This document shows, in pieces, positions 19,786 to 57,200 of a stretch of 64,000 nucleotides of DNA. How positions within the stretch are numbered: the first letter of the stretch is position 1; each line of letters begins with the position of its first letter. The notes below the pieces were generated by a model. That model was not told where the DNA came from. It searched no databases and worked only from the letters and a program-made list of their open reading frames with translations. Source of the stretch: a virus (taxonomy: Duplodnaviria; Caudoviricetes); the IMG/VR virus record IMGVR_UViG_3300025357_000908, positions 1 to 64,000 of that record. One strand, given 5' to 3'. Made by a program: the position numbers and the translations under genes.

Positions 19786-20133
19786 ATGTTATTTAAGAAC
19801 TTTGATGCAAGGTATGAAAGTCTATTAAAAGAATTTACAGAAACTTTTCCTGTAGAAGGACATGCACCTACATGGCAGAAAAAAGCTGGGAAATCCCCTT
19901 CTGGTGGTCTTAACCGTAAAGGTATTATGAGCTACCGTCGTTCTCATCCTGGTAGTCATCTATCTATGGCAGTTACTACTAAACCAAGTAAACTTAAACC
20001 TGGTAGTAAAGCAGCTAAAAGACGTAAAAGTTTTTGTGCTCGTATGAAGGGGGTCAAAGGTCCAATGAAAAAACCTAACGGTAAGCCTACACGTAAAGCA
20101 TTGGCTTTACGTAAGTGGAATTGTCACGAATAA
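19786..20133 (+). CDS. Small basic conserved phage protein (DUF6321-like)
   Basis: GGLN.KG..SY...PGS, RRKSFCARM, ALRKWNC pattern; TAAATA 5 nt upstream. Confidence 0.65.
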   Translation: MLFKNFDARYESLLKEFTETFPVEGHAPTWQKKAGKSPSGGLNRKGIMSYRRSHPGSHLSMAVTTKPSKLKPGSKAAKRRKSFCARMKGVKGPMKKPNGKPTRKALALRKWNCHE

Positions 20134-20801
20134 CGACTGTATATAATTTGATGACCTCTATCGGCTAATCTTAGCCCCTCTTCTCCGAAAGAACCCTGCC
20201 CTTTATGATATGCTGGAAAACTGGTTATGTATCGACGGTTTTCTTTATCATGTATTCTTTCTCCAACTAACTGTAGTTCATATCCATCTCTGACAGTTTT
20301 AAAACAAAAATCGATATCTTCTCCGTAACCCGGACTAAAGACCATATCTAAATATCCGTATTTTTCTAATACACTCTTTTGTAATCCTACGCAGAAGAAA
20401 GGAAAGTACATTTTTCCCATAGCATACATATTAGCGGAGCATGTAACCGATATGTTAGGGTTTTGTTTAATAGGATCTATTAGCATATTAATCCATGTGT
20501 GCGGAGCCATATAGTCTAATATAACTACATCCGTGTTTAACAAAATAATATAAGGAGTAGAAGCATGCTTTAAGCCTATATTAGCTGCAGCTGTAAACCC
20601 CAAAGCATTCGAATGCCAAATAAATTTAATAGCGCTATTGTTTAATTGTACCAAGTAGTCTGCACTCTCTTTATCACTACCATTACACACTACTAATATA
20701 TCCACCCTACTTAAATCCGAGCACTTTATTATAGAATCAATACACTCTTTAAGCAGAGCTACCGGTTTATATGCTGGAATTACTATAGTGGTATCTTTCA
20801 C
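20124..20801 (-). CDS. Glycosyltransferase family 2
   Basis: TIVIPAY, LGF..A.N.G, LLNTD, GYGEDIDFC. Confidence 0.88.
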   Translation of the reverse strand: MKDTTIVIPAYKPVALLKECIDSIIKCSDLSRVDILVVCNGSDKESADYLVQLNNSAIKFIWHSNALGFTAAANIGLKHASTPYIILLNTDVVILDYMAPHTWINMLIDPIKQNPNISVTCSANMYAMGKMYFPFFCVGLQKSVLEKYGYLDMVFSPGYGEDIDFCFKTVRDGYELQLVGERIHDKENRRYITSFPAYHKGQGSFGEEGLRLADRGHQIIYSRYS

Positions 20802-20835
20802 GTAATTTAATTACATAAGCTCGGGAATAAGCAAT

Positions 20836-20869
20836 AAGAAACCCGCTCATTACTGAGCGGGTTCTTTTT
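20836..20869. terminator. Probably bidirectional intrinsic terminator after gp23
   Basis: AACCCGCTCA-ttac-TGAGCGGGTT with T-rich tails both ways. Confidence 0.88.
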
Positions 20870-20897
20870 AAGACACTTTTTACTAAGTGTAAACCTC

Positions 20898-22346: not shown

Positions 22347-22409
22347 AACTAATATAATTTTTTAAACTAACAATATCTCAAGTACTTAACAGTACTTCAA
22401 CGTTAGATA

Positions 22410-22415: not shown

Positions 22416-22416
22416 C

Positions 22417-23623: not shown

Positions 23624-23624
23624 A

Positions 23625-24343: not shown

Positions 24344-25411
24344 ATGGTTAAACCCAAATATAGTGTAGTTATTCCGACTTATAACCATTTAGATGACTTC
24401 TTAAAACCGTGTTTAGAAAGTATAATTAAGTATACGGATTTAGAGAGTACTGAAGTGATAGTTGTTGCAAACGGTTGTAAAGATAATACAGCTGGTTACG
24501 TTAATAATCTAACAACTACATATCCAAACATTAAGCTTATAGAAGAAAAAGACGGGCTTGGGTATACTAAAGCTACAAATATTGGTATTAAAGCATCTCA
24601 AGGTGAATATATAGTACTATTAAATAACGACACTATACTATTAGAACAGTATAAGAATCAGTGGTTAGATATGTTAGAAGACCCGTTTAAGAATGACCCG
24701 TTAATGGGTGTGACAGGTCCTTTGTGGCAAGTTGATAAGATTACAAAATACAGATTCATTATTTTCTTTTGTGCAATGGTACCTAAAAAGTTATTCGATG
24801 AGTTGGGTATATTAGATGAAATATTCTCACCCGGTAGCGGAGAAGATATTGACTTCTGCATTAAAACTCAATTAAAAGGATACAAAGTACAAGTTGTACC
24901 TGTATATACCCAATTAGAAGCTAAAGACAGAAAGATTGTTGCTGGTAATTTTCCTATATACCATTATGCAGAAGGTACGTTTGAGCATATTGAAGATTAT
25001 AGTAGTGTAACATTTAAGCGTAATAGTTTAGTTAATTTAAAAAGATATAGTACTGACATAAAGCTTCATTTAACATCTAAAAACACGGCTGGTTTGTTAC
25101 CTGGGCATATTAAAGTACATCCCTCTAACCCCACATGTGATATACTATCAAATTGGAATTCATTAGACTTTAATGATAGTACTGTAGAAGAGGTAGCACT
25201 AATGGACTCTGTAGATGAAATACCAATAACATTTTTACAGGACTGTACAAAGGAATGGAACAGAGTATTAAAGCCGTCTGGTAGGTTGTTAATATTAGCG
25301 CAAAAATTAAGCACCGCAGTAATTATACAAGCTATCTTAAAGAGTAAATTTAAGGTAGAGGGTACACAAGAATATAACGACAAAATGTTTATACAAGCTT
25401 CAAAATTATGA
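24344..25411 (+). CDS. GT2 glycosyltransferase fused to a degenerate class I methyltransferase-like domain
   Basis: SVVIPTYN, LLNND, GEDIDFC; C-terminal EWNRVLKPSGRL. Confidence 0.82.
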   Translation: MVKPKYSVVIPTYNHLDDFLKPCLESIIKYTDLESTEVIVVANGCKDNTAGYVNNLTTTYPNIKLIEEKDGLGYTKATNIGIKASQGEYIVLLNNDTILLEQYKNQWLDMLEDPFKNDPLMGVTGPLWQVDKITKYRFIIFFCAMVPKKLFDELGILDEIFSPGSGEDIDFCIKTQLKGYKVQVVPVYTQLEAKDRKIVAGNFPIYHYAEGTFEHIEDYSSVTFKRNSLVNLKRYSTDIKLHLTSKNTAGLLPGHIKVHPSNPTCDILSNWNSLDFNDSTVEEVALMDSVDEIPITFLQDCTKEWNRVLKPSGRLLILAQKLSTAVIIQAILKSKFKVEGTQEYNDKMFIQASKL

Positions 25412-26457
25412 TAACAGACAAAGTTACAGCCACTGTTTCTACTAAGGGTAGATATTACAATACTTTTCCTTTAGTACTGACGTCATTAGCTAATCAAACA
25501 CTTAAACCATCTCGTCTTATTATATATGATGACAACGATACGTTAGAAGATATAAGAGAAAATGAAATATATAAAAACATTTTAACCCTTTTAAACAGAG
25601 TAGGTATAAACTGGGAAGTAACAGTGGGTGCACGTAAAGGTCAAATACATAACCATCAACGTGCTTTAACCGATGTAAAATCAGAATTTATATGGCGATT
25701 GGATGATGATAATGTAATGGAAACTGACACATTAGAGAAACTATATAACCACATTACTACAGATAAAAAAATTGGAGCAGTAGGTCCGCTTATACTGGAC
25801 CCCAAGAAAGAAATGTATCACAGAATGGCTTCCAATAAAATAGAAGATATATTTTTAGGTTTCAATATACAGTGGATAGACCCTAAGAAAGAATCATATA
25901 TTGAAGTAGATCACTTACAGGGTAGTACATTCTTATTTCGTAAAGAAGCTGGTAAACATGGTTACGATTTAAATCTTTCACGTGTAGGGCATAGAGAAGA
26001 AACCATCTTTACATATGAAATGAGACGCGCAGGTTGGAAACTTGTAGTCTTAACAGGCGTGAAGACTTGGCATATGCGTTACGGAGCCGGTGGTATACGT
26101 AGTAGTAATCAAATTGAAATGTTTGATCATGATGAAAAAATATTCCATAGTTATCTTAAGAAGTGGAATGTGAAGGCCGCTAATGTAAAAGTAATACCTT
26201 TAGATGCAGGTATTGGAGATCATTATGCATTTAGAATTGCGCTACCTGCAATTAAAGAAAAGCACAAAGGTAGTAGAATAGTGATTGGCGCGTGTTATCC
26301 TGCTGTATTCGAAGACGAAGAAGGAGTTGAAGTGATAAGTTTAGCAGAAGCAGCTGCGTTTGTAAAAATAGAAGACCACAATATATATGGTTGGATGGAT
26401 AGACATAACTGGAAAAAATCATTGTCAGAAGCATATAAAACAGCATATACAACATGA
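25408..26457 (+). CDS. GT2 glycosyltransferase fused to a GT9-like N-terminal half
   Basis: WRLDDD, HREET; C-terminal AGIGDH...LPAIKEKH. Confidence 0.78.
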   Translation: MITDKVTATVSTKGRYYNTFPLVLTSLANQTLKPSRLIIYDDNDTLEDIRENEIYKNILTLLNRVGINWEVTVGARKGQIHNHQRALTDVKSEFIWRLDDDNVMETDTLEKLYNHITTDKKIGAVGPLILDPKKEMYHRMASNKIEDIFLGFNIQWIDPKKESYIEVDHLQGSTFLFRKEAGKHGYDLNLSRVGHREETIFTYEMRRAGWKLVVLTGVKTWHMRYGAGGIRSSNQIEMFDHDEKIFHSYLKKWNVKAANVKVIPLDAGIGDHYAFRIALPAIKEKHKGSRIVIGACYPAVFEDEEGVEVISLAEAAAFVKIEDHNIYGWMDRHNWKKSLSEAYKTAYTT

Positions 26458-26927
26458 AAAAAGTATTAATAAGCCCATTTGCACAAAAATTACGTAACGG
26501 TAAAGAAAACCCTAAAAACTTTCCTTACTGGAAAGAGTTAGTAGCACTAATGAATAACGCTGATATACAAGTTATTCAAATAGGAGCAGGTAAAGATGTA
26601 CCAGTGGAGGGAGTAACTGATTTTAGACAAGGTCTTAAGCTTGCAGAAATAAGAGATCTTGTAAAAGAATGTAATACTTGGATATCTGTAGATAGTTTTT
26701 TACAACATTTGTGTGCATATTATAAATTTAAACGCGGTATTGTTATATTCAGTCAATCAGACCCAAAACACTTTGGATATACCCGTAATCTTAATATGCT
26801 TAAGAGTGAAAGGTACTTAAGAGAAAAGCAATTCTGGCTATGGGAGCAATGTGATTACAAACAAGAAGCGTTTGTAACAGCTCAAGAAGTAATGGATACG
26901 TTATCAAAACTATTAAGTGGTAAGTAA
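26454..26927 (+). CDS. GT9 (heptosyltransferase-like) C-terminal half
   Basis: KNFPYWKELV, VIQIG, ISVDSFLQHL, GIVIF...P..FGY. Confidence 0.75.
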   Translation: MKKVLISPFAQKLRNGKENPKNFPYWKELVALMNNADIQVIQIGAGKDVPVEGVTDFRQGLKLAEIRDLVKECNTWISVDSFLQHLCAYYKFKRGIVIFSQSDPKHFGYTRNLNMLKSERYLREKQFWLWEQCDYKQEAFVTAQEVMDTLSKLLSGK

Positions 26928-26937: not shown

Positions 26938-27822
26938 ATGGCTAATCCTAACAGCACCGTAGGTCCTTCAGACTTTCTATCTACAAATTTAAATAGTAGA
27001 ATTAAAAGCTATGATATGCTTGCTGAGCGTATCTTTTTTCAGCTCGGTGCACCTGTTATTAATTTAGAAATAGCTTGTAATGCTGCGTACGATGCTATTG
27101 CATATGCAATAGAAATGTATACAAAGTTTACACCTGGTACAGAAGAGTTATTAGTATTTGATAGCGCTCTATATACTGCAGGTCAGGGTATAAGAATGGA
27201 CACTCTTATTAATAATACTTTAAATCCAGAAGTATCAGCATTAAGCTCTACATTTCAATCTGGTTGGGATGTAGATTTGAATGATTATAGAAAAGTAATT
27301 GACGTTACTTCATTCTCGGTTGGTACTAATAACGGTGTTAATACATTGTTTACTATTGAACAATCAATGGCACAACAAATGCACTTTGCATATAGCTTAG
27401 GTAGCAAAGCATTCGATGTTATTTCGTGGCACATTTTAAAAGATTGGTTAAAGACTCGTGAAAAGGTGTTTGCACAGCAACCTTACTTCAGATTCGACCC
27501 TCGCACTCAAGTTTTACGTATTACTCCTGATCCTGCGCAAGCTGGTAAAGATAGATACTGGGCAACTGTAAGTTGTAAGATTGAAAGACCGATAAAAGAT
27601 TTAGTAAAAGAGCGCTGGGTAATGGAATACGCTAAAGCTCTTGTTAAGATTAACATAGCTAATACGCGTGGTAAATTCCAAAATACACAACTGTTTGGTA
27701 GCGGTACACTACAATATAACGAGTTAATGACACAAGGCACGACAGAAAAGAAAGATCTTGAAGATCAACTTTTAAATACGCGTCAGGAGGATCAAGAACC
27801 TCCAATGTTTTTCATGGGTTAA
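26938..27822 (+). CDS. gp13: Neck protein, gp13-like
   Basis: LGAPVINLEI, WVMEYAKAL, GKF, C-terminal PPMFFMG. Confidence 0.85.
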   Translation: MANPNSTVGPSDFLSTNLNSRIKSYDMLAERIFFQLGAPVINLEIACNAAYDAIAYAIEMYTKFTPGTEELLVFDSALYTAGQGIRMDTLINNTLNPEVSALSSTFQSGWDVDLNDYRKVIDVTSFSVGTNNGVNTLFTIEQSMAQQMHFAYSLGSKAFDVISWHILKDWLKTREKVFAQQPYFRFDPRTQVLRITPDPAQAGKDRYWATVSCKIERPIKDLVKERWVMEYAKALVKINIANTRGKFQNTQLFGSGTLQYNELMTQGTTEKKDLEDQLLNTRQEDQEPPMFFMG

Positions 27823-33635: not shown

Positions 33636-34277
33636 TTAAATTGTAAAGTCAAAATTAATAATACATCTTACGTTTTTAGTGGGCCCAGAGCTTGAATGGT
33701 AACGTTCACCGTTAAATATCACCACTCTACCTTTTTTGGGTGCAACCTTTTTAATAATATTAAAATTAGTCTCCTTGTACTCATTACCGTTATCTTGATT
33801 TACTTCTCCTAAAGTTTTATCAAAAAAATGAGTATCACCATCAGTGTCGTTTACGTAGTAAAGACAAACCATGTGGGGAATAGTCAAATCAATATGGGGG
33901 TTATTGTGGTTCTTGTTTAAAGAAGCATTTAAAGGAAAGCTTATAAAGCTTCTGGCCATTAGTATTTTTTGAGGTGTTAAATTAGCTTTTGCACACGCAG
34001 AAAACAGCACTGGTTGTACTGTTTTTAGTATGTCAGGGTTAACAACAACAACTTTCGTTGCATCATCATCAAGATACACAAAGGTGTTATTTATTGCTGG
34101 TGTTAGTTTGGTAATTTTCTTTTCTTTAATTCTTTTTCTATTAAAAGTAATATCGTTAACAAATATCCATTTTAATTTTGACCCTAACATATAATCTTCA
34201 AGAAAATCTTGTTGTTCTTTAGGAACAACATCATCAAAAATATATAAATCTTTAATGTTATTATTTTCTATTTTCAT
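33636..34277 (-). CDS. 2OG-Fe(II) oxygenase
   Basis: PHID...LYYVND.DGDT...PKKGRVVIF...YHSS...R.IINF (HxD...H...R). Confidence 0.85.
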   Translation of the reverse strand: MKIENNNIKDLYIFDDVVPKEQQDFLEDYMLGSKLKWIFVNDITFNRKRIKEKKITKLTPAINNTFVYLDDDATKVVVVNPDILKTVQPVLFSACAKANLTPQKILMARSFISFPLNASLNKNHNNPHIDLTIPHMVCLYYVNDTDGDTHFFDKTLGEVNQDNGNEYKETNFNIIKKVAPKKGRVVIFNGERYHSSSGPTKNVRCIINFDFTI

Positions 34278-35249: not shown

Positions 35250-35930
35250 TTAATATTCTCCACGATTAAATTTATTTAAAAACCAGTCTTGACCTTCAAG
35301 CCATTCTTTAGTAAACGATTTGAGCCCTGGAGATGCATGAGTCACATTAATATTGATAGTGCCTAACTTTAATTTGGCTTTATTACATGCCAAACTAAAA
35401 TCGATATCATAAAAATGAAAACCAGCTGGACATGATTCATCAAATTTAACACCTGTATTGAATAGTTTCTTAGGGTTAAAAGCTAAGAACAAACCATCAA
35501 GTATTAATACTCTACCGGTTTTACCGAAGTGTGTTTTAAATGTTTTATTATCTACGTGGTGACCGACTGTACCGCTATGGGTTTCTCTCGGACACATGAT
35601 ATGCCATAAACAAGGCTGTCTAATGGATGGGTTACTACCACCCGCAAGCCCTACAACATCATATTTTTCAAGCGCTTGATGTAATTTAACTATCCAGTTC
35701 TTATCTGTAATAAGAATATCATCATGAGCTAAAACTAAAATACAATCTTCATCTTTATAGGTATTAATATATGAGTTATAAACTTTAGCTATAGCGGTTT
35801 TATTGTTAAAAGCACCGCTTGTGAGTGCTACACCGTCTAAGCCTTCACTATTAACAATAGTGAACTTACTTCTTTCTTTGAGATTTGAATAAGAAGTAGC
35901 TGTAGAACAATAACTAAGATATACATTCAT
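35250..35930 (-). CDS. Glycosyltransferase (GT-A, Glyco_tranf_2_5-like)
   Basis: YN, HDD, GLAGG, LDGLFLA, FDE, FHFYDIDFS. Confidence 0.82.
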   Translation of the reverse strand: MNVYLSYCSTATSYSNLKERSKFTIVNSEGLDGVALTSGAFNNKTAIAKVYNSYINTYKDEDCILVLAHDDILITDKNWIVKLHQALEKYDVVGLAGGSNPSIRQPCLWHIMCPRETHSGTVGHHVDNKTFKTHFGKTGRVLILDGLFLAFNPKKLFNTGVKFDESCPAGFHFYDIDFSLACNKAKLKLGTININVTHASPGLKSFTKEWLEGQDWFLNKFNRGEY

Positions 35931-36193
35931 TAGTCAGTGATAACACTACTGCACGGCAAATTCGAAAATGTTTGTTTAGTTTTTTCTGCTAAAACTGGGT
36001 TGTCAAAAGGGCCGCCCTCGAAGAGGTAAATGTTGCTGAGCTTAATATCAGGGTTATTAAGTTTTTGAGCAAGTTCAACCATGAGCTGATTTTGCTTCGG
36101 TGTCCATTCAGCACATATATCAGTAATGCTTGAAAATAATAAAGCTTCTACCAGTAATTGTTTTTCTTCTAAAGTTAATTGTATACCCTTCAT
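35930..36193 (-). CDS. Hypothetical protein
   Basis: ORF behind TAGATT-N16-TATACT (36203-36230). Confidence 0.7.
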   Translation of the reverse strand: MKGIQLTLEEKQLLVEALLFSSITDICAEWTPKQNQLMVELAQKLNNPDIKLSNIYLFEGGPFDNPVLAEKTKQTFSNLPCSSVITD

Positions 36194-36234
36194 ATTAAGA
36201 AGAGTATAGCTACTTTTCTTAACAAATCTACATT

Positions 36235-36606
36235 TTATTTACCAAAAAAATGTATTAATAGATCTGTCATACTACCTATTAAAGCTACCCAAATTGCTGT
36301 TTGTATATGCCAGTGTAATTTTTGTCTCTCACTGTGCTTTGTTGCACATTTATTGAGTGTATCATGAAGTTCTTCGTAATGAGATGTCATGAAATCACGT
36401 TGCTCTTCAAGTCTAATATCTAATTCTGTCTTAAGATGTTCTATTTCAGTTTGTATAGTGGCAATCTGTTGCATTAAGCTTGGATGTCCATTACCATCTC
36501 GTACAATCTTACTAAGGACTTGTAAATCTTCTTTTACATTAACTATATCTCTGTTAATGTAATCAATGGCGGTGTTTCTTTCGGATGGCGTTTTCTTAGA
36601 GGGCAT
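36235..36606 (-). CDS. Coiled-coil protein with C-terminal membrane anchor (holin/XhlA-like candidate)
   Basis: Hydrophobic C-terminus AIWVALIGSMTDLLIHFF; TAAATA 4 nt upstream. Confidence 0.45.
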   Translation of the reverse strand: MPSKKTPSERNTAIDYINRDIVNVKEDLQVLSKIVRDGNGHPSLMQQIATIQTEIEHLKTELDIRLEEQRDFMTSHYEELHDTLNKCATKHSERQKLHWHIQTAIWVALIGSMTDLLIHFFGK

Positions 36607-36623
36607 CCAATATTTATTGAATT

Positions 36624-37280: not shown

Positions 37281-37281
37281 A

Positions 37282-45350: not shown

Positions 45351-45833
45351 CTACTTGTATTGGTTTAGAAAATCCGGGTTTATTTTGCGTTTTTTAAGGT
45401 ATGTTACTAATTTCCGGTGGGAGTATTTGTTATGATCGAAATTAAAGCGGTAATTAGTTATACTGTTAATTACTTCAGTAGATTCCCCGGATTTGCTGTA
45501 TATACAATCATAGTCTATTGCATTGGTATGTACTATTAGATTTAATGCATTCGCTACGCTTTTAAAGTTAGATTTAATGTCTTTGTATGTATCTAACTTT
45601 TCGTTAATATAAAATATAATATTTTTTTTATGCTCTTTAAATTTTACCTGTATCTCAAGTACATGTTGTAATATATAATAAACTAACAGTCTGCTTGCAT
45701 CTTTTTTAGGTAAATCGTCAGCAAACACCCGAAACTCACTTCTCAACTTTGTTAGATAGCTGTTTTGTATATCTTCAGCTACACTTTCAAAGTCTACTAC
45801 TATCAAGTGAAGATCTGTCTGGTAATAACGCAT
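45351..45833 (-). CDS. Hypothetical protein (possibly a degenerate PIN/5'-nuclease N-domain)
   Basis: LIVVDF start followed by helices; weak. Confidence 0.45.
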   Translation of the reverse strand: MRYYQTDLHLIVVDFESVAEDIQNSYLTKLRSEFRVFADDLPKKDASRLLVYYILQHVLEIQVKFKEHKKNIIFYINEKLDTYKDIKSNFKSVANALNLIVHTNAIDYDCIYSKSGESTEVINSITNYRFNFDHNKYSHRKLVTYLKKRKINPDFLNQYK

Positions 45834-46284
45834 TACTGTTTATAGTAGTGCCAATTTCTTGTTGTGCAAGCTTTTTTAATAGTGCATCCGGTGCTCTACC
45901 TATACGACAGTTAATAATACCGTTGTAAAACCCTTCTTTTAATAATACATTATTATCGAACTGTATTTTAGCTTCATAGTATGCTAACTCAAACTTACTA
46001 TCACAAAAGCGTAGTATTTCAAATTTAAATTTGTCTTTACCGAGTGTTTCAATATCTTTATTAACATCATTTGACGATGATGTGTAGGTTTTCCAGTCGG
46101 TCTCTATATCAAAGTGTCTTTTGTTTTTTCTTCCTTTGAGAGGTTTGAGTTTTTTGACGCTTTTAATTTGTTTTTTTCCAAAATATACCCGACCGTTAAC
46201 GGTGTTAGTAATGCGGTATATAAAACCGTAAGGTAGATTATTGCTATCAAAACTCTCATTAGTAGTCCAATGCCCTAAGTCCAT
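45787..46284 (-). CDS. GIY-YIG-family nuclease-like protein
   Basis: GFIYRITN...YFGKK, WKTY.SS, FEIL, YYE, YN. Confidence 0.8.
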   Translation of the reverse strand: MDLGHWTTNESFDSNNLPYGFIYRITNTVNGRVYFGKKQIKSVKKLKPLKGRKNKRHFDIETDWKTYTSSSNDVNKDIETLGKDKFKFEILRFCDSKFELAYYEAKIQFDNNVLLKEGFYNGIINCRIGRAPDALLKKLAQQEIGTTINSNALLPDRSSLDSSRL

Positions 46285-48917: not shown

Positions 48918-49962
48918 TAGTCCAAGAGTAGGTATTTTTTCAGACCCTCATTATGGTGTGCACCGTAATAGTGAAACGTGGCACAAGATTGCTTTAGAGC
49001 ATGCAAGGTGGGCGTCGGAACAATTCAAACAACAGGGCATAAAAGATATAATAATACCAGGAGATATATTTCATGATCGTAATGACATTGCTGTTAACAC
49101 TCTTCATGTGGCTACTGACATTTTTGATATATTGCGTGATTTTAACAACATTGTTACTGTGGGCAACCACGATGCTTATTACCGTGACAATTCTACCGTT
49201 AATTCCGTATCCATACTTCGCGGTTGGAGTAATATTACTGTTGTTGATAAGCTTGCGATCGAAACACTCCAAGGAAAGAAAATAGCTTTTTGTCCATGGG
49301 GTCAGGATATTAATGAAGTACCTAAGTGCGATTTAATTATAGGTCATTTTGAGGTTAATAGTTTCAAGATGAACTCTTATAAAGTATGTACTAATGGGCT
49401 TAAAGCTTCAGATTTAACAGATAGAGCTCCTTTAACTATTACAGGGCATTTCCATCATAGAGAGGAACGCAAATACAAGGATGGTACGATTCTTTATGTG
49501 GGTTGTCCTTATCAGCAGGATTGGGGTGATTATGGTACTACCAAAGGTTTGTATATTTTAGACTTAAAAGACTTAAGTTATGAGTTTATTGTTAACAATG
49601 TATCACCTCGTTATAACAAGATTAAATATTCTGAAATAGCTAATGGTGTATACACAGCTGAATCACTAAAAGGATTTATACGTAACAATATAGTAAAGTT
49701 TTATATAGATAAACAACTTACACCTGAAGTAGTAGATAACATTGTCAGAAAGATTGCTTCAATTAAACCTGTTGAACTTACTTTAGAGTATGATTATTCA
49801 GAACTATCTAAACTTAATGTAGAAGAAGCTAATACTAAGGATTTTAGTATAAGTGTTGAAAACTCTATATCGGAATTTATTGATTTATTAGATGTTAATC
49901 ATAAAGATAAGGTAAAGAGTTACGTAACTGATTTATACCATAGAGCACTAACAATAACATGA
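48907..49962 (+). CDS. gp47: Mre11/SbcD-like recombination nuclease
   Basis: SDPHYG, GDIFH, GNHD, GHFH phosphoesterase motifs. Confidence 0.93.
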   Translation: MQINSPRVGIFSDPHYGVHRNSETWHKIALEHARWASEQFKQQGIKDIIIPGDIFHDRNDIAVNTLHVATDIFDILRDFNNIVTVGNHDAYYRDNSTVNSVSILRGWSNITVVDKLAIETLQGKKIAFCPWGQDINEVPKCDLIIGHFEVNSFKMNSYKVCTNGLKASDLTDRAPLTITGHFHHREERKYKDGTILYVGCPYQQDWGDYGTTKGLYILDLKDLSYEFIVNNVSPRYNKIKYSEIANGVYTAESLKGFIRNNIVKFYIDKQLTPEVVDNIVRKIASIKPVELTLEYDYSELSKLNVEEANTKDFSISVENSISEFIDLLDVNHKDKVKSYVTDLYHRALTIT

Positions 49963-50756
49963 AAATAGGAGTAGCAGTAATAGCGTGCGATAGACTGGAA
50001 TACACTAAACAGTGTGTTGCAAGTGTACTCGCAAATAAAGGTCCATTGACTGATATTATTTTAATTAACGATGGTGTTAAGATACCAGACGGGGAATTAC
50101 CTGAAGGAATTGAAATAATGAACAATAGACCCCCTTATCAGTCTGTCGGTAAGGCTAAAAATAGAGCTATGCAGGTATTAGTAAATAGAGATTGTGATCA
50201 TATATTTCTTATTGAAAATGATATTATAGTTCAAACACCAGACGTATGGCAAAAATATATTGATGTTGCTAAGACTACCGGTGTAAAGCATTTAAATTTC
50301 GGTTATCATGGCCCAGCTAATAGAACACCGGATTATAAGAAACCGAATCCCAGATACGTTGTAGAGTATCCAGACGGTATTAAATTAGCACTTAATTTAC
50401 ATTGCGTTGGTGCGTTTTCATATTTTAATAAAGCATTTATGAAAGACGTTGGTTACCATGACACTTTCTTCAAAAATGCATGGGAGCATGTAGAGTTATG
50501 TCAAAGAGCTATTGCTAAAAATTATTTACCTGCTTTTTGGTGGTTTCCTGATGTAGAAGGTAGTGATGAAATGCTTAAAGAAATACCCGGCTCTATACAA
50601 AATAGCTCTATTACTCATACCGAGAAATGGACAGAAAATATGCACAAAGGTGCAGAACATTATAGAAAAATACATGGTGTTTCAGCTGTAGAAAACCCAG
50701 ATACTGATATAAAAATTGTGTTACAACGTTTAAAAGAAATATACAAATGCAAGTAA
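49959..50756 (+). CDS. Glycosyltransferase family 2-like
   Basis: INDG, VGKAKN, LIEND, AWEHVE. Confidence 0.78.
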   Translation: MKIGVAVIACDRLEYTKQCVASVLANKGPLTDIILINDGVKIPDGELPEGIEIMNNRPPYQSVGKAKNRAMQVLVNRDCDHIFLIENDIIVQTPDVWQKYIDVAKTTGVKHLNFGYHGPANRTPDYKKPNPRYVVEYPDGIKLALNLHCVGAFSYFNKAFMKDVGYHDTFFKNAWEHVELCQRAIAKNYLPAFWWFPDVEGSDEMLKEIPGSIQNSSITHTEKWTENMHKGAEHYRKIHGVSAVENPDTDIKIVLQRLKEIYKCK

Positions 50757-51532
50757 CCCATTTAGCATTAGCACCTAATGGCAACAGTGGTAGATTTGGT
50801 AATCAATTATTTTTAGTTGCCAGTACTATAGGTATAGCACTAAACAATAATATGAAATATGCTTTTCCTGAATGGAAGAACAATATTTACTTTAAAAAGA
50901 AATTGCCGCAATTAGCGCCTGGTACTGGTATAACATATAGCGAGCCGTCCTTTAAGTATACCCCAGTAAATTTTACTGATAAACAATTTGTATATCTTAG
51001 CGGTTACTTTCAAAGCCCTAAGTATTTTCAAAACTATGAAGACACAATAAGAGAGACATTTGAATTTAAAGATAATTTTATTAATAATGTAAAATCTGTA
51101 CTTGATGAAGCAAAATTAGGTACTACGTGTTCAATTCATGTACGTAGAGGAGATTATTTAAACTATACCGATATACATCCGCAGCAGCCGGCTGAATACT
51201 GGAGTAGTGCACAAAAAGTAATAGAAGATCATGAAAATATTAACACATACGTGGTTTTTTCTGATGATATTAACTGGTGTAAGCAAAATAAGCAGCTATT
51301 CAATACTACTGGTAAGAGAGTTGTTTTTATGCAAGGCAGAAACGAAATTGATGATTTTATAGGTATGATGTATTGTGATCACAATATTATTACTAACTCT
51401 ACTTTTTCATGGTGGGCAGCATGGTTAAATACTAATAAAAACAAAGCTGTTGTAATGCCTAAATTATGGTTCGGACCTAAAGGACCACCAGATAGTACAG
51501 ATTTGCAGGTAGAAGGATGGAAAATTATATGA
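50747..51532 (+). CDS. GT11 alpha-1,2-fucosyltransferase-like
   Basis: GRFGNQLF, GYFQS.KYF, HVRRGDY, FSDD..WC, NSTFSWW.A. Confidence 0.92.
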   Translation: MQVTHLALAPNGNSGRFGNQLFLVASTIGIALNNNMKYAFPEWKNNIYFKKKLPQLAPGTGITYSEPSFKYTPVNFTDKQFVYLSGYFQSPKYFQNYEDTIRETFEFKDNFINNVKSVLDEAKLGTTCSIHVRRGDYLNYTDIHPQQPAEYWSSAQKVIEDHENINTYVVFSDDINWCKQNKQLFNTTGKRVVFMQGRNEIDDFIGMMYCDHNIITNSTFSWWAAWLNTNKNKAVVMPKLWFGPKGPPDSTDLQVEGWKII

Positions 51533-52350
51533 AAAAAGAACTTTATTTAAAAGATAGTAATTTCGGGCATTGTGCATTCAGCAACAATCCCACACCACCG
51601 GTTAGTTTTTCTGAACATATTATATGGAATCGCGGACCTGCACCTATAGGTGCTGACGTAGTATGTACGGACTGTCATTTAAATGACGGTAATATTGCCT
51701 GGATATTGGAACCATACGAAATTAATTCAGGCCCGTACATACACGTTAAAAATAATAGTTTGAAGTATAAAGAAATTTGGACACATGATAAAGAGCTTTT
51801 AACATTACCTAATGCTAAATGGTATCCGGTTGGAGGGTGTTGGTTAGAAGTACCTGAAAGAAAAATCTACGAAAAGAGCAAAATGTTCTCTATTATAGCT
51901 TCTAATAAGAATCAACTACCAGGTCATCAACTAAGACATCAAATAATACAAGCTTCTGGTAATAAGATAGATGCTTACGGGCATTCTTATACTCAATTTA
52001 AGAAACACTCAATGCATAAAATAGAGGGTTTAGCAGATTACCGTTATCATTTTGCAATTGAAAATTGTAAGAGAGATTTTTATTTTACAGAAAAACTTAT
52101 TGATACCTTGATGTCTGGTACAATTCCTATATACTGGGGATGTCCTTCTATTGATAAGTTCTTTAATACTGACGGCTTTATTATCTTTAATGACTTGTAC
52201 GATTTAAAAGAAAAACTTAAAAATTGTACAGTAGAGTTTTATGATAGTAAGAAAGCAGTTATTGAAGAAAACTTTAAATTAGCTCAAAACTACATCTTAT
52301 CAGAAGACTGGATATATAATAATATACTACAAAATGAAAAGACAATTTGA
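51529..52350 (+). CDS. GT10 alpha-1,3/4-fucosyltransferase-like
   Basis: K...L..YRYHFAIEN....YFTEKL.D....TIPIYWG. Confidence 0.88.
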   Translation: MKKELYLKDSNFGHCAFSNNPTPPVSFSEHIIWNRGPAPIGADVVCTDCHLNDGNIAWILEPYEINSGPYIHVKNNSLKYKEIWTHDKELLTLPNAKWYPVGGCWLEVPERKIYEKSKMFSIIASNKNQLPGHQLRHQIIQASGNKIDAYGHSYTQFKKHSMHKIEGLADYRYHFAIENCKRDFYFTEKLIDTLMSGTIPIYWGCPSIDKFFNTDGFIIFNDLYDLKEKLKNCTVEFYDSKKAVIEENFKLAQNYILSEDWIYNNILQNEKTI

Positions 52351-52648
52351 TACAGGCGCACAAAGAGATACAGATGTTGGTAAGCCGAGAATAAGTTTAG
52401 TACCTCATGAAGAACTTATGAGGGTAGCAAGTCATTTCGTATCTGGCGGTCAAAAGTATGGGTTCAACAACTGGAAAAAGGGCATGAACTCTTCAGTATA
52501 TTATGATAGTGCACAACGCCACTTGATTAAATACTGGCAAGGTGAAGATGATGAAGACCATGCTGCAGCTGCTGTATGGAATATTATGTGTATGATGTGG
52601 ACTGAAAAGAACAAACCAGAATTAGATGATAGAAAAGAATACCAATGA
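52334..52648 (+). CDS. dATP/dGTP diphosphohydrolase (DUF5664)
   Basis: TGAQRD...KPR.SL.P, G..KYG..NW.KG, S..RH, EDH.AA..WN. Confidence 0.85.
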   Translation: MKRQFDTGAQRDTDVGKPRISLVPHEELMRVASHFVSGGQKYGFNNWKKGMNSSVYYDSAQRHLIKYWQGEDDEDHAAAAVWNIMCMMWTEKNKPELDDRKEYQ

Positions 52649-53400
52649 AAATTGATTTAAAAAACTTAACATTTACAGTACCTGTTAGAATTGATAGTGA
52701 AGACAGGGCGTTTAATCTTAACTATATTATTGAGTATTTACTGCATAATTTTGATACAAATATTATTGTATACGAGAACGGGCCTAAGTCTTTATTTAAA
52801 AACAAGTATGATATAACGCATATTTACGAGCAAAATGATGGTATTTTTCATCGCACTCGTTACCTCAATAATATGGCTAAACAGGCTACTACTGATTTTA
52901 TCGCTAACTATGATTGTGATGTGATATTTCCTGTAAAACAAATAGTTAAAGCTTATAACCTACTAAAAAGTAATAATTTAGATTGTGTTTACCCATATAG
53001 CGGGTACTTTGTTAACATTAAACGTGATATTTTAAATGAAATTACAAATTTAGACCCTGTTAATTTAAATCCAGATATATATCAAAATTTTGGTAAAAAT
53101 TCTTTTGGTGGTGCGGTATTTTGGTATAAAAAAGCTTTTATAGAGGGGGGTATGGAAAATGAAAATTGCGTATCTTGGGGATGTGAAGACTGGGAGCGTT
53201 TAAAGCGTTTTGAAATTCTCGGTTATCGTATTGCGAGAGTAAATGGGCCACTGTATCACATTGATCATGCAAGAACTCAGGATAGTAGTGAAGCTAACCC
53301 GTTTTATAATAACAACAGAAAAGAATTTGATAAAATATTAAACTCTAAAAAAGAAGATTTATTAAAATATGTTAGTACGTGGCCTTGGACAAAAACATAA
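52645..53400 (+). CDS. GT-A glycosyltransferase (GT2/GT7C-like)
   Basis: NYDCDV, GGAVF, GGMENE...WGCED.ER, LYHIDH. Confidence 0.82.
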   Translation: MKIDLKNLTFTVPVRIDSEDRAFNLNYIIEYLLHNFDTNIIVYENGPKSLFKNKYDITHIYEQNDGIFHRTRYLNNMAKQATTDFIANYDCDVIFPVKQIVKAYNLLKSNNLDCVYPYSGYFVNIKRDILNEITNLDPVNLNPDIYQNFGKNSFGGAVFWYKKAFIEGGMENENCVSWGCEDWERLKRFEILGYRIARVNGPLYHIDHARTQDSSEANPFYNNNRKEFDKILNSKKEDLLKYVSTWPWTKT

Positions 53401-54182
53401 TGAAAAAAGTATACATTACTTTTAGTGGTAGTATCTATGATGATACTACCCGTATAATAGTTCAAGATGGTATAAAATATGGTGCTGATGAAGTTAAGGT
53501 GTACGATGATGTGTGGTTAATGAAACAACCATTTTTTGAACAAAATAAATGGCTCTGGGAACACCCGCACAAAAGAGGATTTGGATGGTACTGTTGGAAA
53601 CCGTTTATAATATATCATGCTTTACAGAACCTACAAGACGGAGATATAGTGTTGTTTACAGATGCTGATTGTTACCCTATTAGTGATTTAAATGTATTGT
53701 TTAATCAATGTGATAAAGATGGTGGTGTAATGTTATTTGCTGCTAACGGACAAACACACTCTTACTGGTGCAAAAAAGATTGCTATATAATAATGGGTCA
53801 AAATGACCCTAAATATTACAACGTACAAGCTGGTGTAGCACGGTTTATGTTATTTCAAAAAGGTAAATGGAAGGCTACACAGTTTTTAATGGAGTGGTTA
53901 ACATATTGCGTTAACCCATTAGCTACAACGTTTGATAAGAGTGTTCTTGCTGAAGAAACGCCTGAATTTATTGAACATAGAACCGAACAAGCAATAATGA
54001 CCAGTCTTGCACACAAGTATGGTTTAAAGCTTTATAGAGAAGCCTGCGGAGCTGGTAACAGGTATAGTTTTGATAAGGAGTTATATGAGCAATTATTCAT
54101 ACAGTTTAATCCTACCGATTTAGTTGGTAGTGAAAAAGCTACAATTAAACCCATAGGCTCTAAGTTTGCTAATGTTAATTGA
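53400..54182 (+). CDS. Putative glycosyltransferase
   Basis: RGFGWYCWKPFII, TDAD (DxD), EHRTEQAI; embedded in the GT operon. Confidence 0.6.
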   Translation: MKKVYITFSGSIYDDTTRIIVQDGIKYGADEVKVYDDVWLMKQPFFEQNKWLWEHPHKRGFGWYCWKPFIIYHALQNLQDGDIVLFTDADCYPISDLNVLFNQCDKDGGVMLFAANGQTHSYWCKKDCYIIMGQNDPKYYNVQAGVARFMLFQKGKWKATQFLMEWLTYCVNPLATTFDKSVLAEETPEFIEHRTEQAIMTSLAHKYGLKLYREACGAGNRYSFDKELYEQLFIQFNPTDLVGSEKATIKPIGSKFANVN

Positions 54183-54190
54183 GTTTACAG

Positions 54191-54218
54191 TAGAAAAAAA
54201 ATAGTTTTATAATATACT
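54191..54218 (+). promoter_or_regulatory. sigma70-like promoter of gp46
   Basis: TAGAAA-N16-TATACT. Confidence 0.5.
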
Positions 54219-54226
54219 ATTAAGTA

Positions 54227-56050
54227 ATGCGCTATGTTTATTTCAAACATTTAAAAATTACTAATTTCCTGTCTGTAGGTAAAAGACCGGTAGTTGTAGA
54301 TTTTAAGCCTGGACTAAATATCATTACAGGTAAAAACTATGATAAAGCTGATAGAGCGAATGGCGTTGGAAAGTCCACTATTGCTGACGCAGTGCATTTT
54401 GCTTTGTATGGTAGCACTATACGCGATCTTAAAAAAGAAAACATAGTAAACGATCAAGCACCTGATCAGTTGTGTGAAGTCGAGCTCGAGCTTACATACC
54501 AGCAAGACGGTAAAAATAATGAATGCCGGATATTAAGAACTCTTAATCCTACTAAGTGCTTTTTCTTCGTTAATGGTGAAGATGTTACCAGATCTGGTGT
54601 ACCACAAACTACAGAGCTAATAGTTGATACCATTAAAACATCTTCTGAAATATTTCAAAATAGTGTTGTTATGTCAATTAACACCACGGTGCCATTTATG
54701 GCGCAGAAAAAGATAGAAAAACGTAAGTTTATCGAGGGTATTCTTGGTCTTGAAGTATTTAGTAATATGTTAAGCTTTGCACGTTTTGATTATAATGAAG
54801 CAAAACGTCTGCTCGATATTGAAAGTACAAAGATAGAAGAGACGAACAGGTCTTTAGCCGATGCGGTTAAACAAAAAGAAAATTACGAAGACACTAAAAA
54901 GAAAAGACTTGAAGTACTATTAACACGTCAGTCTAATAACGCTAAGGAATTAGCGAGTATAGATGAAAAGCTTAATAGTTTAGAATCTGTTGATATAGCA
55001 GCAGAAAAACAAATACAAGATAAATTATCTACTTTAAAAACAGCTGAAGGGGTATGTGACCGTAAAATTGCTTCTATTAATAAGATTATTACAGAAGCAG
55101 AAACACATATTAAGCTCAATAATGATCGCATTAAAAAACTTAAAAAAGTAGATAGCAAATGTCCACATTGCGGTAAAGACTTGGCAGAAGCAGTAAATGT
55201 ACAATATGAGAAAGATAAAGCCGAGTGCCAGTTAGAAATACAGAAATATACAGAAGTTATTAGTACACAAAAACCGCTCTTAGTGGATTCCCAAGATCAA
55301 TTAAATAAGGTTGAAAAAGCTATTGTTACAATACAAAAGAAGATAAACGATTTTAATATTCGTAAAAAAGAAGTAGAGAATATTAACAACAGAGTAAAGC
55401 AGCTTAATGAATGGCAAGCTTCGTTAGTTGTAGATATCGATCAACTTAATAAAGACTCTAATAATTTTCAAGATACTATAGATACTATTGTGACAAGGCA
55501 GAACGATATCAAGAAGCAAATCAGCTCATTACAAGAGAGAATAGATATTGTTGAATCCGCTAAATTTATCGTAGACGAAGAAGGTGTAAAATCTTATATT
55601 GTTAAGAAGATATTACAAGTACTAAATATGCGTTTAGCGCAATACTTACGTAGACTTGAAAGTAACAGTATTGTTACATTTAACGAGTTCTTCGAAGAGT
55701 CTATTACTAATGAAAGGGGTAGTCAATGTAGTTACTTTAACTTTTCTGGGGCTGAACGCAAAGCTATCGACCTTGCAATGTTATTTACGTTTCAGGATAT
55801 TCGTAGAGCGCAAGCAGATGTATGGTTAAATTTGAGTATGTTTGATGAGTTATTTGACTCCTCTTTAGATGAAAAAGGCATTGAATTAGTACTTGATATT
55901 CTCAAAGAGAGGGTAGATAATTACAATGAGTCGATTTATATTATTTCTCACCGTAAAGAAAGTAAAAAGTACTGTATTGGTGGGGAGATAGTATATCTTG
56001 AAAAGAAGAATGGTATAACAACAAGAACAACAACTTATGACATTTCCTAA
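54227..56050 (+). CDS. gp46: Rad50/SbcC-like recombination ATPase
   Basis: NGVGKST, CPHC zinc hook, FSGAE signature, DELFDSSLD, ISH. Confidence 0.95.
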   Translation: MRYVYFKHLKITNFLSVGKRPVVVDFKPGLNIITGKNYDKADRANGVGKSTIADAVHFALYGSTIRDLKKENIVNDQAPDQLCEVELELTYQQDGKNNECRILRTLNPTKCFFFVNGEDVTRSGVPQTTELIVDTIKTSSEIFQNSVVMSINTTVPFMAQKKIEKRKFIEGILGLEVFSNMLSFARFDYNEAKRLLDIESTKIEETNRSLADAVKQKENYEDTKKKRLEVLLTRQSNNAKELASIDEKLNSLESVDIAAEKQIQDKLSTLKTAEGVCDRKIASINKIITEAETHIKLNNDRIKKLKKVDSKCPHCGKDLAEAVNVQYEKDKAECQLEIQKYTEVISTQKPLLVDSQDQLNKVEKAIVTIQKKINDFNIRKKEVENINNRVKQLNEWQASLVVDIDQLNKDSNNFQDTIDTIVTRQNDIKKQISSLQERIDIVESAKFIVDEEGVKSYIVKKILQVLNMRLAQYLRRLESNSIVTFNEFFEESITNERGSQCSYFNFSGAERKAIDLAMLFTFQDIRRAQADVWLNLSMFDELFDSSLDEKGIELVLDILKERVDNYNESIYIISHRKESKKYCIGGEIVYLEKKNGITTRTTTYDIS

Positions 56051-57200
56051 TAACGGCATTATTGGTGCCCCTCAAATGCCTTTTGGTGCACCTGTTGTGG
56101 GTAGCCCATTAACACAGCCCACCCCACCGCCAGTTTCAGTTGTACCGGAAGGTATGAGACGTGCTATAAGTTATGCTGCAGACCACCAAGGGTGCGGGTT
56201 TTGGAGAATGCACTGGGCTGAGTCTATTATTAATGGTAATCAATTGGGTATCATTAATAATAATAATTTTATGATCTTACAGGAGAACTTTTATCAAGGT
56301 ATATCTTGTGTAAGAATACAAAGACAGGTTACACCCACACAGCTACAATTTGTAAGACTTTTAAGAGACATTTCTAATAGAACCAACAATTTTAAGATTT
56401 ATTACGAAATTGATGATGTTATTTTCCCAGAAGATATTCCACTTTATAACAAAGCACGTGAAGCATTTGTTGATCCTGCCATTGGAGCTACTGCAATAGA
56501 AATTATGAAGCTTTGTGATGGTATTACAACGCCTACAGATTACATGTCAAAGTACTACGAAGAAAGAACCGGCGTAAAAGGAATCACACTTCCTAACTAT
56601 ATGCCAAGGTTCTGGATGGATCGTTTTTACAACAAAAATAAGATTTCTGAAAATTACGAATACAATAAAAAACGACCTCGTATCGGTTATGTGGGTAGTC
56701 CAACTCATTTTAATATTGCTGGTACTCCTGGAGTGAAAGACGACTTCGGTGATATATTAGATGTTATTGTAAAAACTGTAAAGCAGTTTAAATGGGTATT
56801 AATGGGCGGTTGCCCTCAGGAGCTTGCTGAATACGTGCGTAGTGGAGATATAGAATATGTAGGCTGGACAAAGCTTTGGGACTACCCTACAGCTTTTAAC
56901 AATTTAAACGTTAATATGGTAATTGCACCACTACAAAACAATAAATTTAATTTAGCAAAAGCTAATATTAAACATATTGAAGCAGGTGCGTTAGGTATAC
57001 CATGTGTTTGTCAAAATTTAGAGCCGTATAAAGAAGCTCCTTTACGGTTCAATACTCCTGATGAAATGATAAGCGTGATTAAAAAAACATTAAGCGACCG
57101 TCGTACTTATTTAACTGAATCGGATATAGCACGTAAAAATGCATGTAAATATTGGTTAGAAGATCATATTGATGAGCATTGCAAACTATATTTCACTTGA
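56037..57200 (+). CDS. GT-B (GT4-like) glycosyltransferase
   Basis: GCGFWR, YEIDD, RIGYVGS.TH, IAPL..N.FN..K.NIK.IE. Confidence 0.78.
   Translation: MTFPNNGIIGAPQMPFGAPVVGSPLTQPTPPPVSVVPEGMRRAISYAADHQGCGFWRMHWAESIINGNQLGIINNNNFMILQENFYQGISCVRIQRQVTPTQLQFVRLLRDISNRTNNFKIYYEIDDVIFPEDIPLYNKAREAFVDPAIGATAIEIMKLCDGITTPTDYMSKYYEERTGVKGITLPNYMPRFWMDRFYNKNKISENYEYNKKRPRIGYVGSPTHFNIAGTPGVKDDFGDILDVIVKTVKQFKWVLMGGCPQELAEYVRSGDIEYVGWTKLWDYPTAFNNLNVNMVIAPLQNNKFNLAKANIKHIEAGALGIPCVCQNLEPYKEAPLRFNTPDEMISVIKKTLSDRRTYLTESDIARKNACKYWLEDHIDEHCKLYFT

Follow-up and report, generated by a model that had tools for sequence, protein, structure and literature searches.

We analyzed the glycosyltransferase (GT) genes in a 64,000-nucleotide stretch of viral DNA, bases 1-64000 of the 122,736-bp IMG/VR record IMGVR_UViG_3300025357_000908, referred to below as the window. 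The eleven open reading frames (ORFs) that a first-pass annotation had called as GTs between positions 20124 and 57200 are all present, and all are GTs by Pfam, PHROG or structure model; they are intact soluble cytoplasmic enzymes of many families. They fall into at least five separately inherited modules, and a gene pair from one of these, a GT2 followed by a stand-alone GT9-like half domain, is associated with collagen-like fiber genes in distant phages. Based on gene content and arrangement, we propose with a probability of about 0.5 that the GTs O-glycosylate the phage's own virion proteins during assembly.

The source is an uncultured freshwater T4-like myovirus. Profile scans of the window recovered gp23 (298 bits), the gp21 protease, the gp20 portal (349 bits), gp15, gp25, gp47, gp46 and gp43. 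Identity of the major capsid protein (MCP) to cyanophage gp23 is only ~34%, and IMG/VR contains over 599 relatives of this capsid protein at 66-95% identity. Megablast of both GT islands against 50,697 phage records gave no match at the nucleotide level. CheckV completeness of the record is 58%, so that the absence of a gene is no proof for this phage. Pfam scans covered ~65 of the ~76 window ORFs and 10 further ORFs of the record, and synteny was compared across ~240 related loci.

A glycosyltransferase pair and collagen-like fiber genes

Three GT genes and ORF 26938 lie between gp21 and gp20, on the opposite strand to them. Two candidate acceptors are encoded near the start of the window.

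24344-25411, plus strand: GT2 that opens the head-module GT island; its C-terminal domain weakly resembles methyltransferases (Pfam Glycos_transf_2, 74.7 bits)
25408-26457, plus strand: GT2, upstream partner of the GT9-half (Glycos_transf_2, 42.1 bits)
26454-26927, plus strand: stand-alone GT9-like C-terminal (donor-binding) Rossmann half, 157 amino acids (aa) (Glyco_transf_9, 27.8 bits)
26938-27822, plus strand: conserved head/neck-module gene, co-oriented with the GT island (PHROG 211, 1.8e-22; synteny)
1317-4103, minus strand: candidate acceptor, a 928-aa proline-free (Gly-X-Ser)n collagen-like fiber (Pfam Collagen, 269 bits, 11 stretches; 198 G-x-[ST] triplets)
6-1304, minus strand: candidate acceptor of 432 aa, built from (Thr-Pro)n linkers, a pair of InlB B-repeat-like domains and a C-terminal poly-Pro stretch (Pfam Flg_new_2, 52 bits)

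The product of 26454, here called the GT9-half, aligns only to positions 106-229 of the 247-position Glyco_transf_9 profile. With 157 aa and the C-terminal half alone, it is not a two-domain GT9 heptosyltransferase, which has a GT-B fold and ~320 aa. The 55 distinct intact homologous frames are 142-183 aa long, all but one of them 142-166 aa, and one further copy of 87 aa is cut short; this steady length points to a conserved single-domain protein and not a truncation (dN/dS, the ratio of nonsynonymous to synonymous substitution rates, is 0.29). Read-through or fusion with GT2 25408 was rejected, as the two are in different frames, are always separate ORFs, and the GT2 C-terminus carries no GT9 signal. 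Assignment to the bacterial autotransporter heptosyltransferases (BAHT; TibC/Aah, TIGR04414) also failed: NCBIfam at E <= 0.1 returned only heptsyl_trn_I (17.9 bits against a cut-off of 185, E 1.4e-3) and RfaC. The C-terminus of 24344 has a faint Methyltransf_11 match (E 0.008).

A search of IMG/VR with the GT9-half retrieved 80 loci, and a homolog of GT2 25408 lies directly 5' in nearly all of those that reach upstream. The adjacency holds in phages otherwise unrelated to this one and in 11 loci from metagenome-assembled genomes (MAGs). Those 11 contigs, the only ones detected in 185,579 species genomes, are short, all from MAGs, and scattered over unrelated phyla (L352-L362, labeled Nitrosotalea, Mucilaginibacter, Saccharibacteria, Opitutae, Patescibacteria and others). 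One carries gp21/gp23 homologs, and the remaining contigs are probably mis-binned phage DNA. Judged by this distribution, the GT9-half family is essentially phage-restricted, and the GT2/GT2/GT9-half module is a mobile phage-specific cassette.

In distant phages, whose GT9-half is 41-56% identical to the one described here, Gly-X-Ser/Thr runs occur no more than 10 kb away in 11 of 20 loci. The corresponding counts were 0/22 for loci found with another GT, 0/35 for gp46 loci and 1/43 for capsid loci (Fisher p 4e-5 to 1e-6, a statistic that ignores phylogeny). A run had to comprise 8 or more G-x-[ST] triplets; loci were at least 9 kb long and dereplicated at 90% nucleotide identity. Specifically, two fiber genes with Collagen and Peptidase_S74 domains in locus L287 are followed by genes for a 643-aa protein, a GT2 and a GT9-half, on the same strand and with overlapping stops. 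The 643-aa protein is a homolog of 24344 with two GT2 domains and a methyltransferase domain. A collagen fiber gene of the same domain composition precedes a methyltransferase, a GT2 and a GT9-half in L321, again on one strand with overlapping stops, and L352 is similar. Judged by this operon structure, the cassette is co-transcribed with collagen-like tail-fiber genes in other phages. Homologs of GT2 20124, encoded downstream of gp23 in this phage, lie inside the fiber-linked GT module of three distant phages (L301, L313 and L298).

The fiber and Thr-Pro-repeat genes of this phage adjoin baseplate genes, and more fibers are encoded at 112.9-122.7 kb of the record. The C-terminal tract of the 6-1304 product consists of ~100 residues of almost pure proline; the ORF runs off the start of the contig, on the other strand's side.

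Positive evidence for a virion role thus concerns four of the eleven genes: 24344, 25408 and 26454 appear linked to fibers directly, and 20124 only via its homologs; for the rest we infer it. We propose that the island between gp21 and gp20 adds the first sugar, possibly methylated, to fiber serines, with the GT9-like half giving a donor-binding domain to its partner. The GT-A, GT11 and GT10 fucosyltransferase, GT7C-type and GT6/8-like enzymes of a cassette between gp47 and gp46 would extend or vary a fucosylated glycan, drawing on host GDP-fucose and UDP-sugars. Swapping of the cassette between relatives would diversify the exposed glycan.

Glycosyltransferase families and their independent modules

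The other GT genes, and one non-GT gene enclosed among them, are as follows.

20124-20801, minus strand: GT2 (GT-A), optional gene downstream of gp23 (Glycos_transf_2, 60.3 bits)
35250-35930, minus strand: GT-A (Pfam Glyco_tranf_2_5, 43.8 bits), linked to QueC and a class-II glutamine amidotransferase (GATase) across the clade
49959-50756, plus strand: GT-A, first and most conserved cassette gene (PHROG 2456, 1e-20)
50747-51532, plus strand: GT11, alpha-1,2-fucosyltransferase-type (Pfam Glyco_transf_11, 105.8 bits)
51517-52350, plus strand: GT10, alpha-1,3/4-fucosyltransferase-type (Pfam Glyco_transf_10, 46.2 bits)
52334-52648, plus strand: dATP/dGTP diphosphohydrolase N-terminal-domain protein, 104 aa, not a GT (Pfam dGTP_diPhyd_N, 89 bits)
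52645-53400, plus strand: GT-A with a Glyco_transf_7C domain, galactosyltransferase-like (Pfam, 29.9 bits; PHROG 15655, 2.5e-59)
53400-54182, plus strand: predicted retaining-type GT-A, GT6/GT8-like fold (AlphaFold2, predicted local distance difference test (pLDDT) score 91; Foldseek; invariant D88-A-D90)
56037-57200, plus strand: predicted GT-B (GT4-like), between gp46 and gp43 (AlphaFold2, pLDDT 88; structural matches)

Eight of the eleven pass the curated Pfam cut-off, three for Glycos_transf_2 and one each for Glyco_tranf_2_5, Glyco_transf_9, Glyco_transf_11, Glyco_transf_10 and Glyco_transf_7C. The three Glycos_transf_2 scores, against a cut-off of 23.3 bits, place 20124, 24344 and 25408 among CAZy GT2-type GT-A enzymes; 49959 scores 17.5 bits with this model, under the cut-off, and its PHROG match is named 'glycosyltransferase'. 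GT11 enzymes are recognized by an HxRRGDY donor motif and SxFSWW, and GT10 enzymes by FxxxFEN...YxTEK. On profile score and these motifs 50747 is assigned to GT11 (HVRRGDY at residue 131, STFSWW at residue 218) and 51517 to GT10 (FAIEN...FYFTEK, FAIENCKRDFYFTEK at residue 185), the latter as a variant with Cys for Ser after EN. Two start positions differ trivially from the first-pass annotation: 51529 is the second ATG of ORF 51517-52350, and 53400 is an ATG within the GTG-started ORF 53379-54182. The ATG start of 53400 is the one used in the protein atlas, which pointed to a GT as well.

The GTs lack signal and transmembrane segments, as had been claimed (the maximal 19-residue Kyte-Doolittle mean across them is 1.59), and they do flank the capsid genes and lie among the recombination and polymerase genes as described (gp23, gp21 and gp20; gp47, gp46 and gp43). 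Pseudogene-like dN/dS, named beforehand as grounds for refutation, was not seen. Pairwise dN/dS against relatives, in which dS is often saturated, spans 0.08-0.29 among the GTs and 0.10-0.27 among the core genes beside them, indicating purifying selection on all of them; given this similarity to core genes, the GTs are not pseudogenes. They make up 11 of the ~76 window ORFs (14%), compared with two GTs among 296 annotated features in T4.

No match to 53400 was found in Pfam, PHROG, NCBIfam or PDB sequences, and its more than 462 homologs, at 56% identity or above, are all environmental and unnamed. Foldseek matches of its model are retaining GT-A enzymes of GT8 and GT6 only, with XXYLT1, LARGE1, glycogenin, BoGT6a and ABO GTA/GTB at the top (E 2e-6 to 5e-5, template modeling score 0.45-0.56). 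On the strength of this model we describe the 53400 family as a predicted GT-A family without a Pfam, PHROG or NCBIfam model. The family is essentially phage-only. A fiber link was sought for this family in distant phages and none was found; other GTs are sometimes nearby.

The GT-B gene 56037 belongs to the core of the clade: no relative down to 35% gp46 identity lacks it, and each of the 5/5 records checked, of which three are complete, has a single copy. Its Pfam Glyco_trans_1_4 score of 21.5 bits is under the cut-off of 27, a profile of 27 homologs found nothing among PDB sequences, and tblastn against deposited phages gave only weak partial matches, in rV5-like and Streptomyces phages. 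A model built from the 27 homologs has Foldseek E values of 1e-11 to 1e-8, with GT4 enzymes closest, and VIA gave Z 24 and a root-mean-square deviation of 3.0-3.5 Å over ~300 residues to SPS, BshA, MshA and PimA. The T4 glucosyltransferases a-gt and b-gt are not among its 50 best structural matches. The S-TIM5 'DNA alpha-GT' was considered as a special match and discarded, since it ranks only 13 in BFVD, at the generic GT-B level. The N-terminus (56037-56141), ~35 residues rich in Pro and Gly, is disordered (pLDDT < 50) and shows the conserved pattern GAPxLPxGxPxxGxP.

The diversity of families (GT2, 7C, 9, 10, 11 and 4) had been taken to imply one branched oligosaccharide, for which the comparison of related loci gives no support. 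At least five modules are gained, lost, shuffled or conserved independently of each other: the GT2 after gp23, the GT2-methyltransferase/GT2/GT9-half island between gp21 and gp20, the GT-A locked to QueC and GATase, the gp47-gp46 cassette, and the GT-B between gp46 and gp43. As the modules are inherited independently, a shared product or target is not required. The GT2 20124 occurs in some close relatives (50-59% identity) and is missing in others; between it and gp23 lies a perfect, GC-rich hairpin of 10-11 bp with T-runs on both strands (20839-20864), which looks like a bidirectional terminator. Relatives with an MCP at least 77% identical keep GT2 25408, the GT9-half and ORF 26938, and only some keep GT2 24344. 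Relatives with an MCP ~68% identical have ORF 26938 between gp20 and gp21, on the strand of these two genes, and no GTs there, indicating that the GTs of this island are an insertion beside a conserved head-module gene.

The gp47-gp46 slot is hypervariable, holding 0-13 ORFs of 47 sequence families in 44 loci. The first GT, resembling 49959, is nearly constant (after gp47 in 42/44 loci), and the GT11, GT10 and GT7C genes are shuffled, inverted or replaced among relatives. Replacements include other GTs (Glyco_trans_1_2, GT2, GT47, GT25 and FucT), sugar genes (nucleoside diphosphate-sugar epimerase/dehydratase, Polysacc_synt_2, DegT aminotransferase and RmlD-type reductase), O-methyltransferases, a carbamoyltransferase, an RpiB-like fusion and a HAD phosphatase. 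The slot is empty in the most distant relatives, whose gp47 and gp46 adjoin directly. The diphosphohydrolase 52334 is kept in only part of the relatives and probably serves guanine replacement, not glycan synthesis.

Virion proteins, host surface or DNA as possible targets

Virion proteins, modified DNA bases and host surface glycans had all been offered as targets. The linkage of the GT2 and GT9-half pair to collagen-like fiber genes speaks for the first, and no acceptor pathway was found for the second (no ThyA-type, TET or C5-methylase genes). The claim that sugar-nucleotide synthesis genes are lacking holds for the scanned window ORFs and fails for the record, which encodes a UDP-galactopyranose mutase (Glf, 270 bits). 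Glf lies outside the window beside a gp5-like baseplate gene, together with a GT60-type polypeptide N-acetylglucosamine (GlcNAc)-transferase (PF11397, 194 bits), another GT11 and a gene that weakly resembles GT25, below the Pfam cut-off; the whole record thus has at least 14 GT-type genes. The position of the GT60-type enzyme and Glf next to baseplate genes supports glycosylation of the virion, as do the replacements in the gp47-gp46 slot of relatives, whose dehydratase, aminotransferase, epimerase, O-methyl- and carbamoyltransferase genes have the make-up of a surface-glycan locus.

Several points weigh against a virion target. The case is one of guilt by association, built from genes alone, and the fiber test was dereplicated at 90% nucleotide identity only and uncorrected for phylogeny. 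The pair lies ~22 kb from the nearest fiber gene of this phage, inside the head module. Both the cassette and the core GT-B belong to the replication/recombination module and are coupled in translation to gp47, gp46 and gp43, and the T4 DNA glucosyltransferases hold the same kind of position (a-gt by 47; b-gt and 42 by 43). A dGTP diphosphohydrolase lies within the cassette, and the genes linked to one GT include QueC rather than structural genes. Transmembrane segments are likewise missing from soluble O-antigen GTs, which makes host lipid-linked glycans a possible target. The published reading for similar phages is modification of host lipopolysaccharide (LPS) (PMC7029224, PMC12801897).

That reading, standard for the GT clusters of cyanomyophages and pelagimyophages (PMC7029224, PMC9602691, PMC12801897) in papers that contain no experiment on it, would have soluble GTs act on lipid-linked O-antigen, LPS-core or capsule intermediates and block superinfection or the sticking of progeny to debris. 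The families are typical of O-antigen/LPS loci (GT2, GT9, GT10, GT11, GT25-like and GT4), the weak best NCBIfam matches are exopolysaccharide (EPS), PglI and heptosyltransferase models, and the hypervariable cassette with its sugar-modifying genes resembles an O-antigen locus. However, Pfam scans of ~65 window and 10 record ORFs, which extend neither to small ORFs nor to the 42% of the genome lacking from the record, found no priming phosphoglycosyl transferase, Wzx/Wzy, ABC exporter, flippase, polymerase or ligase, nor any transmembrane protein among the GTs and scanned ORFs, and the region therefore does not qualify as an O-antigen or capsule assembly locus. The essentially phage-only GT9-half and 53400 families argue against remodeling of the host surface too, and the fiber linkage of the pair would be unexpected under it. 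We consider host remodeling unlikely.

The modules may instead have different targets. The fiber module would act on virion proteins, 35250 on a 7-deazaguanine base or precursor, and the cassette with the core GT-B on a third target, be it a further protein of the virion, the envelope of the host or a small molecule. Independent inheritance of the modules fits such a division, as does the inclusion of small-molecule transferases (BshA, MshA and SenB) in the GT4 fold. The gene string QueC-GATase-x-x-GT-DUF366 is conserved (window 35250-38004; L363, L364 and L365), and none of the arrangements seen puts 35250 or its homolog more than 2 kb from QueC and GATase. The trio stays together despite reordering to QueC-GT-GATase in one relative (G005) and translocation, in the order QueC-GATase-GT, to a site between uvsX-like and dnaB-like genes in two others (G001 and G002), where DUF366 is more than 30 kb off. 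DUF366 has no mention in the searched literature. Adjacency within one clade can, however, be inherited synteny, distant IMG/VR homologs of 35250 have no Que genes nearby, and a second target has no positive evidence. Mixed targets, the third target included, are in our judgment rather unlikely.

Under DNA hypermodification, a modified base would receive mono- to oligosaccharides from some or all of the GTs, as in T4, in the 5-hydroxymethylcytosine glycan clusters of Pyle et al. and in arabosyl-5hoC phages, with the cassette varying in an arms race with modification-dependent nucleases. The placement of GTs beside 47 and 43 is indeed of the T4 type: the order in the window is gp47, cassette, gp46, GT-B and gp43, with DpdA among these genes, and that in T4 is a-gt, 47.1, 47, 46 and 43, imm.1, imm, 42, b-gt. 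The GT genes appear to be co-transcribed with replication genes, the best sigma-70-like sites lying before gp46 and gp43 (the frequency of such sites is not above that in shuffled sequence), and the diphosphohydrolase inside the cassette points the same way. LPS-related phage GT clusters, heptose transfer included, put up to trisaccharides on 5-hydroxymethylcytosine and can lie among structural genes (10.1101/2023.12.21.572611), and poly-arabinosylation is known (PMC13326640). The acceptor-making enzyme of these systems (ThyA family, or C5-methylase plus TET) was not found here. Neither the record nor any of five related ones, of which three are 100% complete, contains PF00303 (ThyA-family dCMP hydroxymethylase/5hoC synthase); PF00145 (C5-methyltransferase) and PF12851 (Tet_JBP) are absent from the record at E <= 1. 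This 58%-complete record thus has neither the gp42-type acceptor enzyme of T4-type DNA glucosylation nor the methyltransferase + 5mYOX + GT cluster for cytosine glycans (Pyle et al.). The predicted replacement of G by formylated preQ1 has no hydroxyl on offer, a-gt and b-gt are missing from the 50 best structural matches of the core GT-B, and 11-15 GTs are far above any described DNA system. We judge this explanation quite improbable.

A narrower variant concerns 35250 alone. The phage carries QueC, QueD, QueE, QueF, a formyltransferase and a DpdA-type set (window profile scans), and 35250 could conceivably be a tailoring enzyme of the 7-deazaguanine pathway that leads to glycosylated 7-deazaguanine in DNA, with the core GT-B extending the sugar; this is a long shot. 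None of the eight 7-deazaguanine DNA derivatives listed in PMC10516641 bears a sugar, and the main paper on phage deazaguanines has no word beginning 'glycosyl'. HuiG (10.64898/2026.04.15.718813) is likewise a GT beside QueC-type genes and N-glycosylates a preQ0-derived 7-deazapurine in huimycin, but it is a GT-B (PF13439) of actinomycete secondary metabolism and 35250 is a GT-A. The protein has invariant motifs HDD, LDG, FHFYDIDF and THxSxG, and tblastn found no homolog of it in deposited phages. If true, no viral genome before this one would have had a purine that bears a sugar. The QueC-GT linkage is a lead, not a finding.

A 2-oxoglutarate-Fe(II)-oxygenase-like ORF nearby (33636-34277, minus strand; weak, prolyl-hydroxylase-type Pfam matches) is an insertion unique to this phage. 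Relatives run directly from the 34261 homolog to the 33156 homolog, and we rejected this ORF as a hydroxylase partner of a GT because it is missing from all of them.

Related systems and other features of the record

Repetitive Gly-X-Ser/Thr or Ser-rich surface fibers beside the GTs that decorate them are found in Bacillus BclA, Clostridioides difficile BclA3/SgtA and the autotransporter heptosyltransferases TibC/Aah, the last being GT9-related. They come from bacterial spores and adhesins rather than from phages, and the GT9-like protein described here is only a C-terminal half, with no BAHT match.

Cyanomyophages P-SSM2, S-SCSM1 and S-SCSM2R (13 GTs from at least 7 families, with GT10, GT11 and GT25 among them) and pelagimyophages carry GT clusters annotated as 'LPS / cell-wall synthesis' (PMC12801897, PMC9602691, PMC7029224). 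This phage resembles them in its many soluble GTs of mixed families, fucosyltransferases included, which occur in hypervariable regions and small clusters, often near tail-fiber genes, and in all of these phages GT function is read from the genes. It differs in its divergent MCP, in having no cultured relative, in a count of at least 14 GT-type genes on a record of 58% completeness, in islands at fixed slots (gp21|gp20 and gp47|gp46), in one core GT-B gene and in evidence that points toward fiber glycosylation as opposed to host LPS. GT-rich aquatic T4-like phages are thus already published, without experiments and with another reading; the fiber link of one module is new evidence. Moraphages (PMC12619734) have four core GT groups and were considered as relatives, but they apparently belong to another lineage, described there as distantly related to huge sediment phages.

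Closer in proposed function are the actinobacteriophages Che8, Corndog and others, for which Freeman et al. 2023, as relayed in PMC12619734 and PMC12801897, describe virion O-glycosylation. According to these accounts, GTs beside structural genes glycosylate virion proteins, shown there and proposed here; the actinobacteriophages are siphoviruses in which two to four GTs modify the C-termini of capsid and tail-tube subunits, as detected by mass spectrometry. The GTs of the present phage are of other families, its putative acceptors are Gly-X-Ser fibers and Thr-Pro repeats, and the system is known from its genes only. The DNA glycan clusters (10.1101/2023.12.21.572611; PMC13326640) share with it a multi-GT, LPS-type-derived composition, and T4 a-gt and b-gt the location beside 47 and 43; the acceptor-making enzymes set them apart, the ThyA-family one being missing from its complete relatives as well.

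GT-rich aquatic T4-like phages are abundant, and the papers on them assume host LPS or DNA as the GT target. The tie of one module to collagen-like fiber genes, by statistics and operon structure, opens a concrete and cheap test. If virion proteins are the target, many uncultured phages would bear glycan-coated, swappable fiber surfaces, with a bearing on host recognition, on escape from recognition by hosts or grazers, and on the annotation of phage 'LPS genes'. Further yields are an unmodeled, predicted GT-A family whose environmental members number in the hundreds, a half-GT-B specific to phages, and a GT persistently linked to QueC.

Among sequence elements, the T4 late-promoter motif TATAAATA shows no enrichment (19 observed, ~30 expected). 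The motif TAA[AG]TAATA occurs in 17 copies across the 123 kb of the record (e.g. window 18881, 19756, 23435, 24293, 29619, 38049 and 45139). Thirteen copies sit 3-17 nt 5' of a start codon (gp20, gp21, gp22, nrdB, phoH and baseplate genes), and none of the 17 directly precedes a GT gene. It could act as a phage promoter or in translation initiation; as it also lies 5' of nrdB and phoH, we did not use it for timing GT expression.

The genome also encodes a 554-aa flavin-dependent tryptophan halogenase homolog (12407-14071, minus strand; Pfam Trp_halogenase, 354 bits) amid replication and nucleotide genes, including a gp44-like clamp loader (10864-11805), a dUTPase-family gene (11805-12362) and the large and small chains of ribonucleotide reductase (16213-18863). 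The replication region contains an ORF with a TnsA-like endonuclease N-domain (39841-40296, plus strand) and a SegE-type GIY-YIG homing endonuclease (45787-46284, minus strand). These two are mobile elements and may contribute to the reshuffling of neighboring modules.

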